The notes below the pieces were generated by a model, which was not told the origin of the DNA, searched no databases, and was given only the letters and a program-made list of their open reading frames with translations. The translations under genes were made by a program, and so were the position numbers. This document shows, in pieces, positions 7,409-19,140 of a stretch of DNA of 53,531 nt; position 1 is the first letter of the stretch; every line of letters starts with the position of its first letter. This stretch comes from a virus. The stretch is taken from UHGV virus genome UHGV-0350075; one strand, given 5' to 3'.

Positions 7409-7663
7409 ATGAGTATGCACATGATGAATGAAGCATGGAACGTAAAACTTAACAGCCCGATCCAAAAACTTGTCTTAATTGCGTTTGCAGAAAAGGCAGA
7501 CAATAAAGGCCGCGCACATGCTTCACGCGAAGAGATCGCAAAAGTGTGCGAACTGCCACTGCATACTACTGTTGACGCATTAAATTCATTGATCCGCAAA
7601 GGATTCATTAAACGCGCTGACGAATACGGCGACATTTATGACATTGCATTGCCGGAGGAATGA
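7409..7663 (+). CDS. winged-HTH DNA-binding protein (HTH_36-like); first gene of rightward early operon
   Basis: 84 aa; AGGAGA SD 8 nt upstream; pattern KLVLIAFAEKADNKG...EEIAKVCELPLHTTVDALNSLIRKGFI. Confidence 0.55.
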   Translation: MSMHMMNEAWNVKLNSPIQKLVLIAFAEKADNKGRAHASREEIAKVCELPLHTTVDALNSLIRKGFIKRADEYGDIYDIALPEE

Positions 7664-7666
7664 TCT

Positions 7667-8719
7667 ATGAAGTGGTTTAAGCATGATAGCGATGCGAACC
7701 GCGATGAAAAACTTCAAAACGTTTTATTAGATTATGGCCTGGAAGGGTACGGGCTTTATTGGTATTGCCTAGAACTAATAACTTATGACGTAGATCAGCA
7801 CAATCTAACTTTTGACCTACGACATGACGCAAGAATAATTGCGCGAAACGTCGGATCTACTGAAAAACGTATAGAAGAAATGATGAAATACTTCATCGAA
7901 ATTGGTTTGTTTGAATGTTCTCAAGGTCACATAACTTGTTTAAAGTTATTGAAAAGGCTGGACCAATCAATGACTTCTAAAAGCGCTTACAGGGCCGCCA
8001 TAAACACAGCGAAGGAGCAATTAAAATTAGAAAAGTTAATCAATCCAACACAAAAAGGTCATGATAGGGTCATGACCGGGTCAGGAAAGGGTCATGAATT
8101 AGAATTAGAAGTAGAAAAAGAAAGAGAAAAAGATATATACACTTCGTGTATTGTCGAAAATGAACAAAAAATGGTCAATCAGGATGGCGTAAACGAAGCG
8201 GCATTGCGTTGCCTTGCCTTCTACAACGACAAGGCAGGATGCAAATGTCGTGATGCTAAGCCATTCGTAGAACTACTGACAGAAACAAAAACACGTAAAG
8301 CGTATACGGAGGATGAGATCACATTAGTGATTGAGTGGGCTTTAACCCAATGGCGTAGCCGTGGTGGAGTACCTAAGCCTATCAACATTTGCCGGGTAAC
8401 TAAGTTTGATGGGTATTTGGCTGATGCTGAACAATGGCGCAAGCTATCAGCTACTGTAAACGCTGCCGACGTGGTGGAAGCATTTAACAGCACGTTTGAC
8501 GGCCTGTTACCACCTGCCGAACTGGATCGGGATCTTGAACGCAAGATCTATGCGTTCACTGACTACCTGAAAGACAAAAGCATTAACGGCTTTGTCGCCT
8601 ACTTCGAAACGTTCAAAAACACGGCTTCAGATTTTTACTTCGGCAATGGCTTCACTGCGACACTTGATTTTCTGCTTAAACCAAAAACGCTACGTGATAC
8701 GCGCGCTGGCGTTCTTTGA
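7667..8719 (+). CDS. replication initiation / replisome organizer protein (DUF4373-like N-terminus)
   Basis: 350 aa; N-terminus MKWFKHDSDANRDEKL...YGLEGYGLYWYCLELI matches phage replisome-organizer N-domain pattern; precedes helicase. Confidence 0.55.
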   Translation: MKWFKHDSDANRDEKLQNVLLDYGLEGYGLYWYCLELITYDVDQHNLTFDLRHDARIIARNVGSTEKRIEEMMKYFIEIGLFECSQGHITCLKLLKRLDQSMTSKSAYRAAINTAKEQLKLEKLINPTQKGHDRVMTGSGKGHELELEVEKEREKDIYTSCIVENEQKMVNQDGVNEAALRCLAFYNDKAGCKCRDAKPFVELLTETKTRKAYTEDEITLVIEWALTQWRSRGGVPKPINICRVTKFDGYLADAEQWRKLSATVNAADVVEAFNSTFDGLLPPAELDRDLERKIYAFTDYLKDKSINGFVAYFETFKNTASDFYFGNGFTATLDFLLKPKTLRDTRAGVL

Positions 8720-8851
8720 CCAATCACGATCCGCAAAAATCCAAAATTACCCACAAAACAACCTCATCAGCGAGCTAAATCGCATGGGGGCTACACTTGC
8801 TTACCTTTTTGCGATTAGCTTGTTATGGAGCGTTTCAGAGAGGATTTAGCT

Positions 8852-8953
8852 ATGAACGGTAAACGCATGTTCGCCCTGGCTTTCGCGATCGCGATGGCTA
8901 TCGCTGTTAACGTCGCCTTGTTCGGCGGCTTATATCTACTAGTTAATCCATAA
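8852..8953 (+). CDS. hydrophobic microprotein (33 aa, MNGKRMFALAFAIAMAIAVNVALFGGLYLLVNP)
   Basis: Own translation; GAGG SD; preceded by 21-aa hydrophobic ORF 8784..8849 with TAGCTATG junction. Confidence 0.3.
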   Translation: MNGKRMFALAFAIAMAIAVNVALFGGLYLLVNP

Positions 8954-9114
8954 CTACCCTTCTACCTTAAAAATCGAAAATTAGCCACCTGATTGCGCTT
9001 CTGGCGCAAAAAAGACACTGCACCCTTACAAGTGGGTTACGCGGTGGGTTTTTGCGTTGTAGCGCGTTTTACGGAAAATAAATATACATTCTGTAAACCG
9101 GAGGAATTAACGTT

Positions 9115-10233
9115 ATGTCACAAAGAAAGATCAGCGATGAACAGTTAATCGCTGAACATAATAACGGTCTGACGTATAAACAGATCGCAGAAAAATATGG
9201 CATGGCAAAACGCAACGTCGAACGCCTGGGCGCACGGTTGGCGAAACGCGGTTTAATATCCACGCGCCGCGCACCGGGTTTTGGCGTCAATGCTGAGTCA
9301 TTGCTCGTCGATAAGGATGGCAATGTGATTATGCGCTGGATTAAAACAGCCCGTGACCGCGATGAAATGGAAATGCTAATGCAATCGGCTTGTGATGCTT
9401 TCACGGAAGAGATACCACGCGCGGAGGCCGTGCCAGTGCCGGAAATTGATTTTCAAAAAAGCCTGGCCCTTTATCCGGTATTCGATCTGCATATCGGGGC
9501 GCTTGCTCATAAAGCTGAATGCGGTGAGAGCTACGACACCGGGATCGCTGAACGCGTGCTAAATGACTTCTTCGACTACGCGGTAGGCGCTGCGCCAATG
9601 TCTGAAAAGGCTGTTTTGCTTCTCGGCGGTGATGTGCTTCACACTGACGGCCTGTTACCAGTGACGCCATCAAGTAATCACGTTTTAGATTGTGATTCAC
9701 GCTACGCAAAACTGGTTTATGTGGCGATCCGGTCGGTCCGGCGTGCGGTCGGGAAGATGTTACTAAATCATAAGGATGTCGAGATCCAGGTATTATCCGG
9801 TAATCACGACCAATCAGGTATGATCTGGCTACGTGCTGCGCTGGCGGCTTTTTACGAAGATGAACCGCGTGTGACGGTTGATGTGTCACCTGCTATCGTC
9901 CATCACACACAGTACGGCAAAACATTTCTTGCTTACCACCACGGGCACACTATCAAAAAGCCAGAAAATTTACTTTCTGCCTGCGTTTCTGACTGGCGGG
10001 AGGATTTCGGCAAGTCGTCGTCTGTTTACGCTCATTGTGGACACTGGCATCACCAACGGCTGATTGAATCATCGTTGGGCGTTGTTGAGTACCACGGCAC
10101 GTTAGCTGGCAAAGACGCTTATTCAACGAATGGCGGCTGGCGGTCGCGGCGGCTGGCTGCGGTAATAATTTACAGTCCTGATCATGGGGAAATCGGGCGC
10201 TTTGTTTATTACCCTGAATATTCCATTTTGTAA
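9115..10233 (+). CDS. HTH domain fused to calcineurin-like metallophosphoesterase domain
   Basis: 372 aa; N-terminal HTH (LTYKQIAEKYGMAKRNVERL); motifs DLHIG, GGDVLHTDG, GNHD, HHGH, GHWHH in phosphoesterase order. Confidence 0.6.
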   Translation: MSQRKISDEQLIAEHNNGLTYKQIAEKYGMAKRNVERLGARLAKRGLISTRRAPGFGVNAESLLVDKDGNVIMRWIKTARDRDEMEMLMQSACDAFTEEIPRAEAVPVPEIDFQKSLALYPVFDLHIGALAHKAECGESYDTGIAERVLNDFFDYAVGAAPMSEKAVLLLGGDVLHTDGLLPVTPSSNHVLDCDSRYAKLVYVAIRSVRRAVGKMLLNHKDVEIQVLSGNHDQSGMIWLRAALAAFYEDEPRVTVDVSPAIVHHTQYGKTFLAYHHGHTIKKPENLLSACVSDWREDFGKSSSVYAHCGHWHHQRLIESSLGVVEYHGTLAGKDAYSTNGGWRSRRLAAVIIYSPDHGEIGRFVYYPEYSIL

Positions 10234-10251
10234 ACCGGAGGCGATGCCATA

Positions 10252-11673
10252 ATGATAACCGAACAAGTAAACTCATTGCGGCAAGAAAGAGAATCAGCGG
10301 TTATCGGTGGCCTGCTGTTAGGTGGGCTTACTCCTAACGCGCAAGATGTTCTCGCTACGCTTGATCCTGAAGTGTTCACTATTCCGCTGTATAAGCGGGC
10401 TTTTGAAATTATCCGGGCGCAAGCCAGAAACAGAAATCTTATCGACGCCTTGCTGGTTGGTGATGAGATTGGCAACGAAAATTTTGTACCGCTGATGCAA
10501 ACGGCGCGATCGTGTCCTTCTGCTGCCAATCTGAAAGGATATGCGCGACTACTACAGGAAGAACACCAGCGGCGGCAAATGCTGGAACTAATGGAAGACA
10601 TTCGCTACAAACTGGAAACGGGGACGCTTGAAGTCGTCAGGGAGACGATGAAAGATTTTGATTCACGGTATTCAAAATTAAAGGTAACAAAAGATCAAAT
10701 TATCCCGGTGCTGTTGCGCGATGCGGTCCAGGAATACACGGAAGTGTTAAGTAAACGCATGGAGTGTGGCGTGAACTCTGACAACATCAAAACAGGGATT
10801 GACCCACTCGACGAAATGTTAGGCGGCATTAACGCTACTGATCTGGTGCTTATCGCCGGACGCCCAGGGTCTGGTAAATCGGCGTTGGCGTTGGCAATTG
10901 CCCGCGCGGCGGCTGAACGTCCATACCCTGGCGGCGAAGGTCAGCGGGTCGGCGTTTTGCTGTTCACGCTTGAAATGTCGCTCGATCAGATGACTGAACG
11001 TGCTATCGCTGGCGCTGGGAACTTATCAACGGATTGCCTACGTAATCCGGTAAAACTGGATGACGAAGGTTGGGCGCACGTCGCCCAGGGAATGAGTGCC
11101 CTTGCCGATCTCGATGTGTGGATTGTTGACGCATCGCAGTTAACGGTCGAGGAAATACGCGCCACCGTCGAACGGATGAAACAGGACCATCCTAACCTGG
11201 GGATGGTAATGATTGACTACATCGGGTTAATGAAGCTGGCTAAGGCCGAACGTCATGATCTCGCCGTAGGGCAATTGTCGTGGTCATTGAAAATGATGGC
11301 GAAAGAGTTGCGCGTGCCAGTGGCGGCGCTGGCGCAATTATCCCGCCGCGTTGAGGAACGACCGAACAAGCGCCCGAACAATTCTGATCTGCGTGATTCC
11401 GGTAATCTTGAACAGGACGCAGACCGGATCATCATGGTCTACCGCGACGGCTACTACAACGAACAATCGGTTGCCCGCGAATATATGGAGATCATCGTTT
11501 CAAAAAACCGTCACGGGAAAACGGGGACTGTTTACCAGCGGTTTGACGATAACGGCAACATCATCCCATGCGACCAGGCCCGCGCGGCGTCCGCTTGCAT
11601 TCAGTCAATGCAACAACGTCCGGCGGCAAGTCGATTCTCCACACGAAACAGCCAGAACAACGCATCTTTTTAA
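10252..11673 (+). CDS. dnaB: DnaB-family replicative DNA helicase
   Basis: 473 aa; Walker A GRPGSGKS, FTLEMS, IDYIGLM; GGAGG SD. Confidence 0.85.
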   Translation: MITEQVNSLRQERESAVIGGLLLGGLTPNAQDVLATLDPEVFTIPLYKRAFEIIRAQARNRNLIDALLVGDEIGNENFVPLMQTARSCPSAANLKGYARLLQEEHQRRQMLELMEDIRYKLETGTLEVVRETMKDFDSRYSKLKVTKDQIIPVLLRDAVQEYTEVLSKRMECGVNSDNIKTGIDPLDEMLGGINATDLVLIAGRPGSGKSALALAIARAAAERPYPGGEGQRVGVLLFTLEMSLDQMTERAIAGAGNLSTDCLRNPVKLDDEGWAHVAQGMSALADLDVWIVDASQLTVEEIRATVERMKQDHPNLGMVMIDYIGLMKLAKAERHDLAVGQLSWSLKMMAKELRVPVAALAQLSRRVEERPNKRPNNSDLRDSGNLEQDADRIIMVYRDGYYNEQSVAREYMEIIVSKNRHGKTGTVYQRFDDNGNIIPCDQARAASACIQSMQQRPAASRFSTRNSQNNASF

Positions 11674-12523: not shown

Positions 12524-12751
12524 ATGAACAAGGAATTGGAGTTGACCGTGGAGGATTTAAGCACGATCGCGGAATACATGCGCGGCGATGATCCTGATAA
12601 ACCTGTTACGGTTGATATGAAATATTTAAAAGGCGCTTTTATGACTTCTTCAAAATTGATTAGTCTTGATGCAATTATAAAGGCGCGCTGGGAAAGTTGG
12701 CAGGAATACAAAGCGAAAAATAAGGCGAAAAGAAATAATGCGGCAAATTAG
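12524..12751 (+). CDS. hypothetical protein
   Basis: Track ORF trimmed to ATG 12524 (MNKELELT...) after AAGGGGGGA SD. Confidence 0.45.
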   Translation: MNKELELTVEDLSTIAEYMRGDDPDKPVTVDMKYLKGAFMTSSKLISLDAIIKARWESWQEYKAKNKAKRNNAAN

Positions 12752-13169
12752 ATTTGAGATAGTCAACGACGCCGTGAAAGAAAATGCTATCAGGCAGATA
12801 AGAGAGATCCAGCCTGATAGCAAAAGCCCGCTGATAATCACCATCCAGGAGAAAACCCGCTCGCTAAGCCAAAATGCGTTGCTTTGGGCGCTATTGACCG
12901 ACATTAGCGATCAGGTTAATTGGTACGGTAAAAAGCTGTCGCCGGAAGACTGGAAAGCGGTATTCACTGCCGGACTTAAGAAATATGGCGTAGTCCCTAA
13001 CCTAGATAAATCAGGCTTCGTTGTATTGGGAACGTCTACAAGTCGAATGAGTAAATCAGAATTCAGCGAACTAATCGAATTGATCTACTCGTTCGGTGCT
13101 GAACATGATGTTCAATGGTCGGGTGATACGAAATTAAACGAGGAATTTATAAAACGCTGGGGGCAATGA
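12738..13169 (+). CDS. ninB: NinB/Orf-family recombination protein
   Basis: 143 aa; close match to lambda NinB as recalled (ITIQEKTRSLSQNALLWALL, GFVVLGTSTSRMSKSEFSELIELI). Confidence 0.8.
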   Translation: MRQIRFEIVNDAVKENAIRQIREIQPDSKSPLIITIQEKTRSLSQNALLWALLTDISDQVNWYGKKLSPEDWKAVFTAGLKKYGVVPNLDKSGFVVLGTSTSRMSKSEFSELIELIYSFGAEHDVQWSGDTKLNEEFIKRWGQ

Positions 13170-13997: not shown

Positions 13998-14215
13998 TGG
14001 ATAAGATCGGGACAATACTTATTAACCGTGAGCAAGTGCAAAAAATGTTAGGCGGGCTTAGCAAGTCCGCCTTTTTTAAGCTCGTTAAAAAATGGAAAGA
14101 AGCGGGAACTCCTTTCCCTGAACCTGTAAAGGGGATGCCAGCATTAAAGCGCGGGGGATCTCTTTACCGTTATCAGGACGTTATTTCATTTTGTAAATCG
14201 ATGGGCTTCATGTAG
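13997..14215 (+). CDS. putative excisionase-like HTH DNA-binding protein
   Basis: 72 aa; Xis/AlpA-like pattern (INREQVQKMLGGLSKSAFFKLVKK...); convergent with int, 3' ends overlap. Confidence 0.4.
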   Translation: MDKIGTILINREQVQKMLGGLSKSAFFKLVKKWKEAGTPFPEPVKGMPALKRGGSLYRYQDVISFCKSMGFM

Positions 14216-15372
14216 TAATCAGCCAGTTTATTCATCGCCTCGATTTGTTCCCTCACGTAATCATATTGATCATAGATAGCCATCATCCCCGCCAGTTTAT
14301 GACCCAAAACCTTTTCGGCTACGTGCGGCGCAACGCCAAGCGCTGAAAGGTTTGTCCTTACAGTGCGGCGTAGATCGTGACACGACCACGACTCGCCGCC
14401 CATCCTTAGCATCAAATCCCTTGCGGCTGTTTTCGGCACGCTCCTGTCTACCGCTTCATCCCTTCCAGAAAGCACTGGAACGAAGATAAAATTAAAGCCG
14501 TGCAAATCCATAGCTTCACGCAATAAACCTACGCTAACGTCGGATAAACCGCGCTTAAACTCATTTCTGTTCTTACTCAATGCACCCGGCACGGTCCACA
14601 CGCAGTTATCAAGATCGAAATGTTCGCGCCTTGCGTTTGTTAGTTCGCTTGTTCTGCATCCGGTGAATATAATCAGCTTCATCAATATCTGATTTAGCCG
14701 CGCCATTTTTGAACTGTCTATAATGCTGATTAGATGGTGAATCTCTTGTATTGATAAGACGCGTTTCCTTTGCGCCGGGTTTTTGCCTACGTCTTTCACG
14801 CGTAGCAATGATATGTCGTCACGCTCCACGCGGCGGCGTCGCATGGCATATTTTATCACCGCCTTCATCCTGTTTAAGACTATCCCTGCCTGAACGGGCG
14901 CGCCACCATTAGCTACCTTTCTAAAAATCCCCTCCCACATTATGGAGTCCATATCATCGACGATATAGCTACCGCATGGTCTGACAATGTGCTTACTTAG
15001 CATCGCCTCGACTTGCTTATAGTTGACCATGTTTCTTGCCTGCGGTGATTCCATGTACTCCATAACAATATCTTCAATCGTTGCCCGTGTCGTAACGCGG
15101 GACAAGTTCATTCTTTTTACGATCGATGGATCTCGCCCTGAGTTTAAGACTTCCTTATGCTCCGCCACCGCCGCGCGGGCTTCTTTGAGTGTTATTTCTC
15201 CGTAAGTGCCAATCTTCATCCGTCGCGGCTTGCCGTTGAATCGGTAGCGATACTGAAAAGATATAACGCCGTGCGGGCTTATCCTGGCAGACAATCCGCC
15301 CGCGTCCGGGACTTCTTTCGGGCCGTCATATGGCTTGCCGTGGATGTTTCGTAATTTGGTATCTGTAAGCAT
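14173..15372 (-). CDS. int: tyrosine integrase (P4-like family)
   Basis: Track ORF trimmed to ATG 15372 (MLTDTKLRN...); C-terminal HDLRRT and conserved Tyr region; upstream extension runs through an att repeat. Confidence 0.85.
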   Translation of the reverse strand: MLTDTKLRNIHGKPYDGPKEVPDAGGLSARISPHGVISFQYRYRFNGKPRRMKIGTYGEITLKEARAAVAEHKEVLNSGRDPSIVKRMNLSRVTTRATIEDIVMEYMESPQARNMVNYKQVEAMLSKHIVRPCGSYIVDDMDSIMWEGIFRKVANGGAPVQAGIVLNRMKAVIKYAMRRRRVERDDISLLRVKDVGKNPAQRKRVLSIQEIHHLISIIDSSKMARLNQILMKLIIFTGCRTSELTNARREHFDLDNCVWTVPGALSKNRNEFKRGLSDVSVGLLREAMDLHGFNFIFVPVLSGRDEAVDRSVPKTAARDLMLRMGGESWSCHDLRRTVRTNLSALGVAPHVAEKVLGHKLAGMMAIYDQYDYVREQIEAMNKLADYYMKPIDLQNEITS

Positions 15373-15374
15373 AA

Positions 15375-15396
15375 TTTGGTCACTATTTGGTACACA
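15375..15396. repeat. direct repeat copy 1 (TTTGGTCACTATTTGGTACACA)
   Basis: Identical 22-mer recurs at 15607..15628; candidate integrase arm-type site. Confidence 0.5.
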
Positions 15397-15606
15397 CATT
15401 TTACGCATGGATAGTATCACGATAGAAAACGATATGACACGATAGAATAAATATTTCTTTTAAAATCAAGGTGAAGTGGTGACGATGTGACACGATGTGA
15501 AATGATAGAAATGGCGTTATCCGCTTATCTTTTGAATGGATAACTTAATGAAAAATTCATTTGTATTCAGTGTGTTATGTTTTGTTTTTGTTTTTGATTT
15601 ATCATT

Positions 15607-15684: not shown

Positions 15685-18600
15685 TTATTTTTCGCTTCCG
15701 GTCAACTGCCGGACAAGCGCTTCAAGTTTAGTGATCCGCTCATCCATGACGGCAATGTTAGCGCGTAAGCTGGCGTTTTCTTCCTCCAGTTCGGTGACGC
15801 GGTTATCTGTTTCGCGTGCCACCTGGACAAGTAAACCAGTCACTGCCGCATAATCAACGTTTAGGTAACGCGTTTCTTCGCGTAGCTCGTTGCCGTCAAT
15901 GGTCGGGCCTTGTAATGCTTCACCGTAATGAGTAAACGATCCCACTGCTTCCGGTAGCGCCTCCATGACCTCCTGAGCGATAACGCCAGCGTAAGGCAGG
16001 CCATTTTCCTTAAGCGTGTAGGTGTACCCGTTCATTTTACGGATTGCTTCAGTAGCATCGCCTATAACCTGAATGTTGTCCTTCAGGTCGCGGTCTGAAG
16101 ACTGGTTTACTGTTACGCAGTTTACAGCCCCGTTAACCTGAAAATGACATGAATCATCCGTGTTTTGCTGCGCGTAAAAAATCCATGAAAGTGACGCGTT
16201 TGTGTCTGGATCTTTTATCTTGCACTCAAATACAGTTGGGCGGCTTTCTGCACCCCACAAATAAAGCTCACCATTTCTTACCGCTGAATTTGCGACGGCT
16301 AAAGTTACTTTTCTTGTGTAAGTATCAGAGAAAAACTCCGTCGATTTAAATTGTTGGTATCCAGTCCACCTTTGCGAAGATGCGTTAAGCGTAGCAAGTT
16401 GACACCAGCCTTTATCTACTCCGCCCTCAAAACTTCTGGCGTAGAATTTTGAATTACGTCCGACGAATTGGGTGGCGTAGTTACCGCTAAAGCCAACATG
16501 AAAGCCGCCATAAACTACATTATTTTCCGGTGTATTTGTTTGACCAGCAATAGGTTTAAACTTGCTTACGTTGTCTGATTGTTGTGCGTTCCAGTCTTGA
16601 TCTGTATATGTTGCAACTCCGTTAGCTGGCTGTATAGTTCCGTTTGATTTGATAACCTGATAAGAATCACCATATTTATTGCGGTATGTATCAGTGCAAT
16701 AAAACCCTGTTGCACTCGATGTGAAATCAAGTAAGTTATTGCTAATGCCGTAAGTGTCTAAATCAATACCATCAGAGGAATTAGTGATACCCCATTTATA
16801 AGTCGGGCTATCTGCTGTGTTAGTTGGCTTCCAGTCTGCTGTAGGTATTGTTACAGTACATCCAACCGTAACAGCGATGCGAATGGGGAAGGCATCACCG
16901 CGAACATAGATCGCGTTATGCGGATACTGCCCTTTATCAGTACCGCGAACGCAAAGTATCGCGTTTTCATTGTTTGCGTAACAGAAATAATGACCAAATA
17001 CAGCCGCACCCATATCTGACCAGCCACCATCACGTAACCATAAATGAATTGCGTTACAGTTAGGATCTCCACTGCCAGATATTGACTTAGTTCTCATTGC
17101 AACTTCAACAAGGAAATCGCCGTTATAGTGTGAAGGATGGCTGACAATTACAGGGTAATATTTACCAGCTTCAGCACCAGTAGGGGCGTTGTAATCAACC
17201 CAATGCGCAATACCTGCAAACGGGATTTGCATATTGGTTTTAGTTTGTTCAAGGTTTGTAGGTACTGCAATTGCATTGACTTTCAGGTTAGGTACTTCTA
17301 TTTCATCCCTTGCATAGTTGTAGCTCATTGAATAGCTTGTATTCGTACCGTCATATCCGTCTTTCTGAATACGCCAGTTACCACCATCAAAGATAAGGCT
17401 ATAGTAAGGTGTATTTGATGGCCGATCCGTTTCGTTGAATCTGATGGTAGGATGAGCGCTTGATATTTCTACGGGGTAATTAAAATTAGCTGTTAATCTT
17501 ACACGCCTACCTATAAAATCACCGCTATTTAAAGAAAAGTCGCCGTCTTCGCTTAATCCTGCGTATTGGTTTTTATCTCCACTCTGTAGGTGAATTGTGG
17601 CCCATGATTTACCATCGCCACGGAATTCTGAATAAAAACGCGCTCGCGCTCTTTGTGCGCCTGATGCATCATTAAGAATGCTTTGTAAAATACCGCCTGC
17701 CGTGGTTGCGACATCTGACGACCTAACAAGGTTAAGGTTTGTAAATTGCGGGCTATCAGTAAAATCAAGAGACTGAAATTTCTTCCATGCGGTCCACTCC
17801 CAACCAGAAGAGGAAGACTGAATGATGTGCTGGCGCATATAAAATGTACCAGTCGTGGCATTGTAAGGGAAATAAAGCTGCGTGCATCCTGCGTTACCGT
17901 TCGCATTATTTCTAATAACAAGCAATGCTCCCGCACTTGATACAGGATAACCGCGCGCAGTCGTGGCATTTACGTTTAACCCCTGGTAATAAAAACCGGA
18001 ATACTCGCCAGTAAGCGTATTAATATCTGTGGAACCTAGATCTGATTTTTTCTCATACATAACCTCAAGGTTTGTGCGTGCTTGTCCTGCGTTACCGCCA
18101 CCAGTGCCACCATAATTTAATCCCAATGGAAGCGGGCCTGATTCAGTTCTAGCTCCCCATGCTGCGTTACTTATGAATAGATAATTAGTTGATTCGCCAG
18201 CGTAAAGCTGCGTTTCAACTGTGTAGTTATAAAGCCTTGATACTTCGTCTTTTCTTACGTGCCTTGTCCATTGCGGTCCTATGCTGCTCGACCAACGATA
18301 GGTATACAGGGATCTTGTATTCCATCCCTGGAATATACCCGTATATGTAGGAGAACCATCGCAACCGCTAATAAAGCCTGTTAAGTACGCTTCACCTGAA
18401 GCAATGGACGGAAAACCAGTTGCCGATTCACGAATACGCATAAAGCCAATATAACCGGATGGATTGCCTGAAATGTCAGGACAATCGCGCGGCGATGCGC
18501 CAAGACCGATATTGTCGCCTACAATACCTTGCGCCTGGTTGCGATAGTTAAGCGCGGCGGCGGCGGATTGCGCCGCATTTGTCTCGCTGGTAGCTGCCGC

Positions 18601-19140
18601 CGTTTTACTGTTGCTTGCTGATGTTTCGCTGGCTTTTGCTGCATCCTGTGACGCTTTCGCTGCGGTGGCTGAGTTTGCTGCCGCTGTTTTTGATGCCGCT
18701 GCCGCGTTTTTATCTGATTCAGTTTTTTGAGCGTTGGCGGTTGATTGCGCTGTTTCTGCGCGAATGTCGGCAAGAAGCTGATCCATCTGACCATCTCCGC
18801 CGAAATCTTCCCACCACTCGACGGCGGCGGCGATCTCTGTTTCCTGGCCCTGATAGTAACGCAGTGTTTCGGCTACGTCCTGAGCAAGCCCATCAACTGA
18901 GATCGAGTCAGATAGCAGAATGCTAAATTTTGTCCCGGCAGGGATGGCAGGATTAGCCGCTGGCGTTACTGATAATTCAGTACCGCTCTTAATTTCGGTG
19001 ATAGTGAAAATCTGTACCGGATTTCCAATGGCAATGAGCGTGCACCCTACACGGATGAGAGAAAGCGGCGCGGAAAAGTTTGTTCCCGTACCTGTAACAG
19101 TATTGCCGCTAACGGCAATTGTTCCCGTTGTATAAATCAT
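15685..19140 (-). CDS. side tail fibre protein with C-terminal intramolecular chaperone (S74-like) domain
   Basis: 1151 aa; lambda Stf-like Ala/Ser/Thr-rich N-terminal repeats; C-terminus SDRDLKDNI plus coiled coil as in endosialidase chaperone domains. Confidence 0.8.
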   Translation of the reverse strand: MIYTTGTIAVSGNTVTGTGTNFSAPLSLIRVGCTLIAIGNPVQIFTITEIKSGTELSVTPAANPAIPAGTKFSILLSDSISVDGLAQDVAETLRYYQGQETEIAAAVEWWEDFGGDGQMDQLLADIRAETAQSTANAQKTESDKNAAAASKTAAANSATAAKASQDAAKASETSASNSKTAAATSETNAAQSAAAALNYRNQAQGIVGDNIGLGASPRDCPDISGNPSGYIGFMRIRESATGFPSIASGEAYLTGFISGCDGSPTYTGIFQGWNTRSLYTYRWSSSIGPQWTRHVRKDEVSRLYNYTVETQLYAGESTNYLFISNAAWGARTESGPLPLGLNYGGTGGGNAGQARTNLEVMYEKKSDLGSTDINTLTGEYSGFYYQGLNVNATTARGYPVSSAGALLVIRNNANGNAGCTQLYFPYNATTGTFYMRQHIIQSSSSGWEWTAWKKFQSLDFTDSPQFTNLNLVRSSDVATTAGGILQSILNDASGAQRARARFYSEFRGDGKSWATIHLQSGDKNQYAGLSEDGDFSLNSGDFIGRRVRLTANFNYPVEISSAHPTIRFNETDRPSNTPYYSLIFDGGNWRIQKDGYDGTNTSYSMSYNYARDEIEVPNLKVNAIAVPTNLEQTKTNMQIPFAGIAHWVDYNAPTGAEAGKYYPVIVSHPSHYNGDFLVEVAMRTKSISGSGDPNCNAIHLWLRDGGWSDMGAAVFGHYFCYANNENAILCVRGTDKGQYPHNAIYVRGDAFPIRIAVTVGCTVTIPTADWKPTNTADSPTYKWGITNSSDGIDLDTYGISNNLLDFTSSATGFYCTDTYRNKYGDSYQVIKSNGTIQPANGVATYTDQDWNAQQSDNVSKFKPIAGQTNTPENNVVYGGFHVGFSGNYATQFVGRNSKFYARSFEGGVDKGWCQLATLNASSQRWTGYQQFKSTEFFSDTYTRKVTLAVANSAVRNGELYLWGAESRPTVFECKIKDPDTNASLSWIFYAQQNTDDSCHFQVNGAVNCVTVNQSSDRDLKDNIQVIGDATEAIRKMNGYTYTLKENGLPYAGVIAQEVMEALPEAVGSFTHYGEALQGPTIDGNELREETRYLNVDYAAVTGLLVQVARETDNRVTELEEENASLRANIAVMDERITKLEALVRQLTGSEK

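Follow-up and report, generated by a model that had tools for sequence, protein, structure and literature searches.

A helix-turn-helix metallophosphoesterase in the replication module of an mEpimmI-group coliphage is an ordinary member of the abundant phage T1 gp16 family

The classic phage exonuclease required for host DNA breakdown is T4 gp46/47, a homologue of Mre11/Rad50. Bxb1 gp47 and L5 gp54 are metallophosphoesterases (MPEs) that have weak exonuclease activity and are needed for phage DNA replication (PMC11795197), and A10ZJ24 gp48, a gp47 homologue with phosphodiesterase activity, damages the DNA of the host, while replication of phage DNA in M. tuberculosis depends on it (PMC12287305). 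[quoted passage not shown]

The window that we analysed, the whole 53,531-nucleotide virus genome UHGV-0350075, is that of Escherichia phage MagusPhagus, a member of the mEp021/mEpimmI group. Its plus strand carries at 9115–10233 (stop codon counted in) an ATG-started open reading frame for a 372-aa protein, with a GGAGG Shine-Dalgarno sequence 8–12 nt 5' of the ATG. MagusPhagus (PP925836.1) has a protein of 100% identity, XNS39334.1, already labelled "DNA repair exonuclease". A preliminary description had placed the gene between a replication initiator and DnaB, and so it lies: the 5' neighbour in the same operon encodes a 350-aa initiator of Lin1244_N/O-like type (7667–8719, +), and the gene for a DnaB-family replicative helicase (10252–11673, +) begins 18 nt past the MPE stop. 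A consensus scan for a promoter or terminator belonging to the MPE gene itself gave nothing above shuffle expectation, and the window has neither tRNA genes nor Rfam matches. Small antisense and overlapping ORFs inside the 9115–10233 interval are unsupported, and we took them as noise.

Two features just upstream deserve mention. The initiator seems to be split, an 84-aa HTH_36 protein (7409–7663) being followed 4 nt on by the 350-aa Lin1244_N/O-like protein; the former aligns with the N-terminal ends of several PHROGs labelled "replication initiation". Between initiator and MPE gene lies a 42-aa ORF (8825–8953, +), hydrophobic in its C-terminal half (MFALAFAIAMAIAVNVALFGGLYLLV) and possibly encoding a small membrane protein; the annotations of MagusPhagus and mEp010 give different small ORFs for this region.

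The replication region shares 86–88% DNA identity with mEp021, mEp010, mEp013, mEp044, mEp515 and mEp554. These phages form the Nus-dependent, non-lambdoid temperate "mEpimmI" group (PMC11893012), whose genome paper does not discuss the MPE gene. To speak of a lambdoid module, as was done initially, is therefore inaccurate in the strict sense. The gene order beyond the replication genes is consistent with the "non-lambdoid" description of the group and differs from that of lambda: the tyrosine integrase gene (14173–15420, −) comes directly after the nin-like region (NinB, 12738–13169) and adjoins the large tail-fibre gene (15685–19140, −). The module had also been called atypical, which is fair with respect to the usual initiator–helicase modules, where no such gene is found, but not within the lineage, since the MPE gene sits between the O-like gene and dnaB in seven of seven sequenced relatives.

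The C-terminal part of the protein (residues 114–372; 9454–10230, +) is a calcineurin-like MPE core. It has the beta-sandwich fold of these enzymes and the complete superfamily pattern DxH, GD, GNH[DE], H and GHxH, that is, seven metal ligands plus the catalytic histidine. All five motifs, on the plus strand, are as first described: motif I, D124-L-H126, of DxHxG type, with predicted metal ligands (9484–9492); motif II, G172-D173-V-L-H176, GDxxH in its Mre11/SbcD form, in which D173 is the predicted bridging ligand (9628–9642); motif III, G229-N230-H231-D232, with N230 predicted to bind metal and H231 to be the catalytic histidine (9799–9810); motif IV, H275-H276-G277-H278, which aligns with the "HGH" of the Bxb1 gp47 family (9937–9948); and motif V, G309-H310-W-H312-H313 (10039–10053). 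Among 54 representatives at 30–57% identity, D124, H126, G172, D173, N230, H231, H276, G277, G309 and H312 are invariant (54/54), and H176, D232, H278 and H310 are at least 90% conserved; in a set of 150 representatives, each motif is present in 139–145. At the level of sequence, conservation of the full ligand set and of the catalytic histidine confirms the predicted active site. Two conserved, unmodelled loops flank it (residues 178–194, followed by the invariant R196, and 329–344) and probably bind substrate.

Standard domain models nearly miss this core. The window protein does not match Pfam Metallophos or Metallophos_2 even at E≤1, just 11–12 of the 54 relatives have a Metallophos-type match at E<0.01, and no MPE, nuclease or SbcD/Mre11 model of NCBIfam matches the window protein. 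PDB sequence searches with phmmer and with full-length profiles returned nothing significant. The family to which the protein belongs, PHROG 704, is by these profile comparisons a divergent MPE clade. Comparison with known MPE folds gave closely spaced values, of 12.7 for both MJ0936 and Mre11 (3qg5), 12.4 for the Pol-delta B subunit and PolD DP1, and 12.3 for LpxH and SbcD. When a core-only profile was run against the PDB, Mre11/SbcD came out on top, at E=0.06–0.27, which is below significance. The motifs nonetheless align with the catalytic residues of T. maritima Mre11, a check that the preliminary description had proposed: "tDlHlGmlaW" of the HTH-MPE family with "sDWHLGvtsW" of Mre11 at motif I, "lGDflHyD" with "tGDLLHs" at motif II, "GNHDe" with "GNHDw" at motif III and "GHlHh" with "GHIHs" at motif V.

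The resemblance to Mre11/SbcD, including T4 gp47 and T5 D13, stops at the catalytic core. The HTH-MPE protein lacks a sequence-recognisable capping domain of Mre11 type, and it has a fused N-terminal helix-turn-helix (HTH) instead of a Rad50/SbcC partner; no gene for a Rad50/SbcC-like ATPase lies beside the MPE gene in the window or recurs near it in 153 loci. Compared with PolD DP1 and the eukaryotic polymerase B-subunits, it is devoid of an OB-fold domain and has no DP2-like polymerase to work with, T1-like and mEpimmI phages encoding no DNA polymerase at all. The gp47-type proteins (Bxb1 gp47, L5 gp54, A10ZJ24 gp48) belong to PHROG 221; they are 255 aa long, have no HTH and begin motif I at residue 10. 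The window protein does not match PHROG 221, and gp47 matches PHROG 221 and not 704. When the PHROG 221 profile was aligned to the HTH-MPE core with hhalign, probability was 77% (E=2e-5), covering motifs III–V only. The two are different families of one superfamily that plausibly have a role class in common. Bxb1 gp47 moonlights as a directionality factor for a serine integrase, whereas the integrase of the window phage is a tyrosine recombinase. As a side note, product names in the Bxb1 RefSeq entry (NC_002656; our locus L010) appear shifted or mis-transferred over Bxb1p45–p49: the recombination directionality factor (RDF) label is on gp46, with "sigma-K factor" on gp45 and "phosphofructokinase" on gp49, while the RDF of the literature is gp47, the metallophosphoesterase.

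The N-terminal part begins with a three-helix HTH resembling sigma-70 region 4 and LuxR/GerE (residues 8–44; 9136–9246, +). Its helices cover residues 8–16, 21–28 and 32–44 and were modelled by AF2 with pLDDT 82–87. Pfam gives only weak, sub-threshold HTH matches for the window protein (residues 11–55); relatives match Sigma70_r4_2 (1.5e-9), GerE (2.4e-8), HTH_1 and HTH_23. A linker module follows (residues 56–113; 9280–9453, +), made up of a beta-hairpin (58–78, in which G69 and W75 are conserved), a helix (79–97) and a variable stretch. The N-terminal profile was matched by 126 of 150 family representatives (about 84%), and in about 136 of the 150 at least 100 residues precede the MPE core, so that fusion of HTH and MPE is the norm in the family.

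Indeed, nothing supports the view that the protein or its architecture is new or unusual. The window protein matches PHROG 704, "DNA repair exonuclease", at E=5e-138 (residues 4–368 against profile positions 2–387 of 390). By tblastn, homologues turn up in 2,044 of the 50,697 phage records searched (about 4% of sequenced phages), on hosts that include Escherichia, Klebsiella, Salmonella, Vibrio, Rhodobacter and Thermus; an exhaustive HMMER search, with clustering at 50% identity, yielded 4,338 representatives, 909 of them at E≤1e-30. T1 gp16 (ST16) is 57% identical to the window protein and shares with it the HTH+MPE architecture and the invariant motifs. Other members are found in Drexlerviridae, Webervirus, Dhillonvirus (HK578 gp59), Jerseyvirus and Era103 (gp26), so that the family spans virulent and temperate phages and all three tail types. 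The window gene is an ordinary member of a catalogued, abundant phage family, and what sets it apart from the T1 gp16 group is its genomic position only, which in the mEpimmI lineage is between the genes for an O-like initiator and DnaB. Records name these proteins "DNA repair exonuclease" or "putative phosphoesterase". The former name was transferred by remote homology; we found no experimental study of any PHROG 704 member in the literature.

How tightly is the family bound to replication genes? We gathered 80 IMG/VR loci and 68 loci from bacterial genomes (mostly proteobacterial prophages), plus annotated phage records, the IMG/VR loci having been found with a narrower alignment than the most diverse one, and called ORFs and clustered neighbours over 153 loci (93 phage or IMG/VR, 60 bacterial-genome). 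Of the 93 phage/IMG-VR loci, 18 have DnaB within three genes, and practically all of these 18 belong to the mEpimmI lineage. The 60 bacterial-genome loci gave a single DnaB match, ten genes off, and no case of adjacency. The position in the replication module is specific to the mEpimmI lineage. A role as helicase loader was considered and rejected, because HNH genes interrupt the MPE–dnaB pair in close relatives and because adjacency to DnaB is absent elsewhere.

The most widespread functional neighbour across the family is a dNMP kinase (PHROG 139, E=9e-49), found on the same strand in 27 of the 153 loci. These loci belong to Klebsiella T1-like phages, a Jersey/Dhillon-like group, SP6-like Era103 and a relative, Yersinia phage vB_YenM_531 and six alpha- and beta-proteobacterial prophages. 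In 18 loci a stand-alone HAD 3'-phosphatase of PNKP type (PF25109, PHROG 415) lies between the MPE and kinase genes. The result is a recurrent same-strand array of HTH-MPE, HAD 3'-phosphatase (about 160 aa) and dNMP kinase (about 190 aa), as in Era103 (L011, 3998–7200), vB_YenM_531 (L012, 3989–6281) and many IMG/VR loci such as L035–L052 and L060–L068. In Era103 the trio is flanked by a 5'-3' exonuclease/endonuclease VII on one side and a DNA ligase on the other; in T1 the phosphatase and kinase genes (ST64 and ST62) are split by an HNH gene and lie 34 kb from the MPE gene. The label "polynucleotide kinase" on the ~160-aa proteins is misleading, since they consist of the phosphatase domain only. 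Clostridium thermocellum Pnkp, an RNA end-healing enzyme, combines a kinase with an MPE. A split version of such an enzyme can be discarded for the array, whose small member is a HAD 3'-phosphatase and whose P-loop member matches dNMP kinase, not polynucleotide kinase. The linkage of MPE, kinase and phosphatase, judged from raw neighbour counts, is suggestive. The window phage has neither a dNMP kinase gene nor a PNKP-type phosphatase gene.

Of the three functions offered in the preliminary description, a replication-linked nuclease is best supported, by the Mre11/SbcD-type motifs and fold and by the precedent of Bxb1 gp47 and L5 gp54. We consider it somewhat better than an even bet (a probability of about 0.55) that the protein is a DNA-acting nuclease supporting phage DNA replication or nucleotide supply. 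We infer the identity of the metal, DNA as the substrate, the polarity of the exonuclease and the role in vivo as follows. The HTH and the beta-hairpin/helix module with G69 and W75 would anchor the protein on DNA or on a partner specific to the phage; in place of an absent Rad50/SbcC, the fused HTH would take over the DNA-binding role of the partner. The core, a binuclear Mn2+-type MPE of the Mre11/SbcD/PolD-DP1 kind, would hydrolyse DNA phosphodiester bonds, with D124, H126, D173, N230, H276, H310 and H312 as metal ligands and H231 stabilising the transition state. Its activity may be that of a 3'-5' exonuclease, a single-stranded DNA endonuclease or both, releasing 5'-dNMPs. Co-transcribed with the O-like initiator and DnaB in the early rightward operon, the enzyme would support lytic DNA replication, the likeliest route being the processing of DNA ends or intermediates, the degradation of DNA for the nucleotide pool, or both. 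This would put it in the role class of L5 gp54, Bxb1 gp47, A10ZJ24 gp48 and T4 gp47. In many other phages, its product might feed the adjacent 3'-phosphatase and dNMP kinase. It is tempting to extend this to the T1 gp16-type family at large, though here we are distinctly tentative: its members might be nucleases that degrade DNA to 5'-dNMPs for reuse, among them the enzyme behind the host-chromosome degradation of T1 and TLS, forming in many phages a three-gene salvage cassette with the 3'-phosphatase and the dNMP kinase, and acting in kinase-less phages such as the window phage as Rad50-independent, Mre11-like enzymes required for replication.

Outside the mEpimmI lineage the gene is often found in quite different company, and one could envision a nuclease acting late, which works with the packaging machinery or clears DNA structures before packaging. 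In Paraburkholderia prophages the MPE gene lies 1–3 genes 5' of TerS-TerL-portal. A lysis cassette adjoins it in HK578, RcPescado, T1-like phages, a Vibrio phage and one further contig (L006); in T1-like phages Dam and small genes come before the gene and an HNH gene and the lysis cassette after it, and in HK578 the gene comes after the lysis genes, at the right end of the genome. The commonest immediate neighbour, on the downstream side, is an HNH endonuclease, in 9 of 24 lineages, 7 within three genes. However, these HNH genes are of homing type (HNH_3) and come and go among close relatives, the dNMP kinase/phosphatase linkage does not fit packaging, and in the lineage of the window the MPE gene belongs to the early replication operon, with terminase far off. 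A late function is improbable in our estimation. Elsewhere, in Jerseyvirus, tail genes surround an island in which the gene has a Rha/ANT gene as its neighbour. An HNH gene 3' of the MPE gene is also seen in T1 and in a Vibrio phage.

About equally improbable is that the protein hydrolyses a small molecule, either a second messenger (as a countermeasure to CBASS, Pycsar, type III CRISPR or Thoeris) or another nucleotide, with the HTH regulating or localising it. This is the anti-defence function suggested at the outset, and positive evidence did not turn up: no PADLOC model matched, apart from an HTH at chance level (E=0.025). The known phage signal-degrading enzymes cited in the papers that we consulted have other folds, and none of the PHROG 704 family was found among them. 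Moreover, an HTH of DNA-binding type is kept fused in about 84% of members, and motifs I and II have the Mre11/SbcD form.

Less probable still is a regulatory role, the third of the initial proposals and likewise without positive evidence, or a scaffolding one: the protein would be a "trigger enzyme", that is an HTH transcription factor with an enzyme domain sensing or consuming a ligand, or else an adaptor that, like a polymerase B-subunit, bridges the helicase and the host replisome. The eukaryotic B-subunits have lost the catalytic residues, which the HTH-MPE family keeps; the gene is not consistently found beside a regulatory region with a promoter, and no partner conserved across lineages was found for it.

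Lambdoid nin regions carry a protein phosphatase of NinI type. NinI, like the HTH-MPE, is a calcineurin-like protein from the early region of a temperate coliphage, but we strongly disfavour a Ser/Thr/Tyr phosphatase of this sort, as NinI is from another MPE clade (PPP), has no HTH and ranks low in structural comparison, and the PPP motifs GDxHG, GDxVDRG and GNHE are not found in the window protein.

An exact 13-bp direct repeat, TGTAAACCGGAGG, consisting of a TAA stop codon and a Shine-Dalgarno sequence, brackets the MPE gene. Copy 1 (9092–9104, +) ends 10 nt before the MPE ATG; copy 2 (10229–10241, +) takes in the stop codon of the MPE gene along with the Shine-Dalgarno of DnaB, and its end is likewise 10 nt from the ATG, here that of DnaB. 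These are two copies in the window against 0.08 expected by chance. The DnaB-proximal copy is kept in relatives, even where an HNH gene has been inserted, and the upstream copy in some only. The repeat could be the dnaB ribosome-binding region, duplicated upon insertion of the cassette, or a shared signal for translational coupling. Several relatives have an additional gene, either one for a zinc-ribbon protein 5' of the MPE gene or one for an HNH homing endonuclease between it and dnaB. The latter, an HNH_3 gene placed exactly between the two, is seen in E. coli prophages, mEp021, mEp010 and mEp515 (L005, 8115–8660; L008, 5040–5543; L009, 3489–4079) and is missing from the window phage.

In two E. 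coli prophage proteins (P0107 and P0115; L005, 7001–8122), residues 1–100 are 92–93% identical to the window protein while the core is 45–46% identical; HGD replaces HGH in motif IV, and an HNH gene lies directly 3'. The recombination joint of such chimeras is the linker module. This pattern looks like domain-level replacement, possibly by homing-associated co-conversion. In the family, N-domains diverge faster (40–60% identity) than cores (63–78%), which together with the chimeras points to a modular design and suggests that the N-module provides lineage-specific targeting and the catalytic module is interchangeable.

Taken alone, the window gene matters little, for it is already deposited and labelled. 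The family matters more, being very abundant and having an intact active site. If its members are self-sufficient Mre11-like nucleases, they would explain nucleotide supply or the processing of replication intermediates in phages that, like T1, have no polymerase of their own, and they would make available for study a compact nuclease tethered by its HTH. That the gene is repeatedly linked to those for a dNMP kinase and a PNKP-type phosphatase provides a concrete and testable lead.
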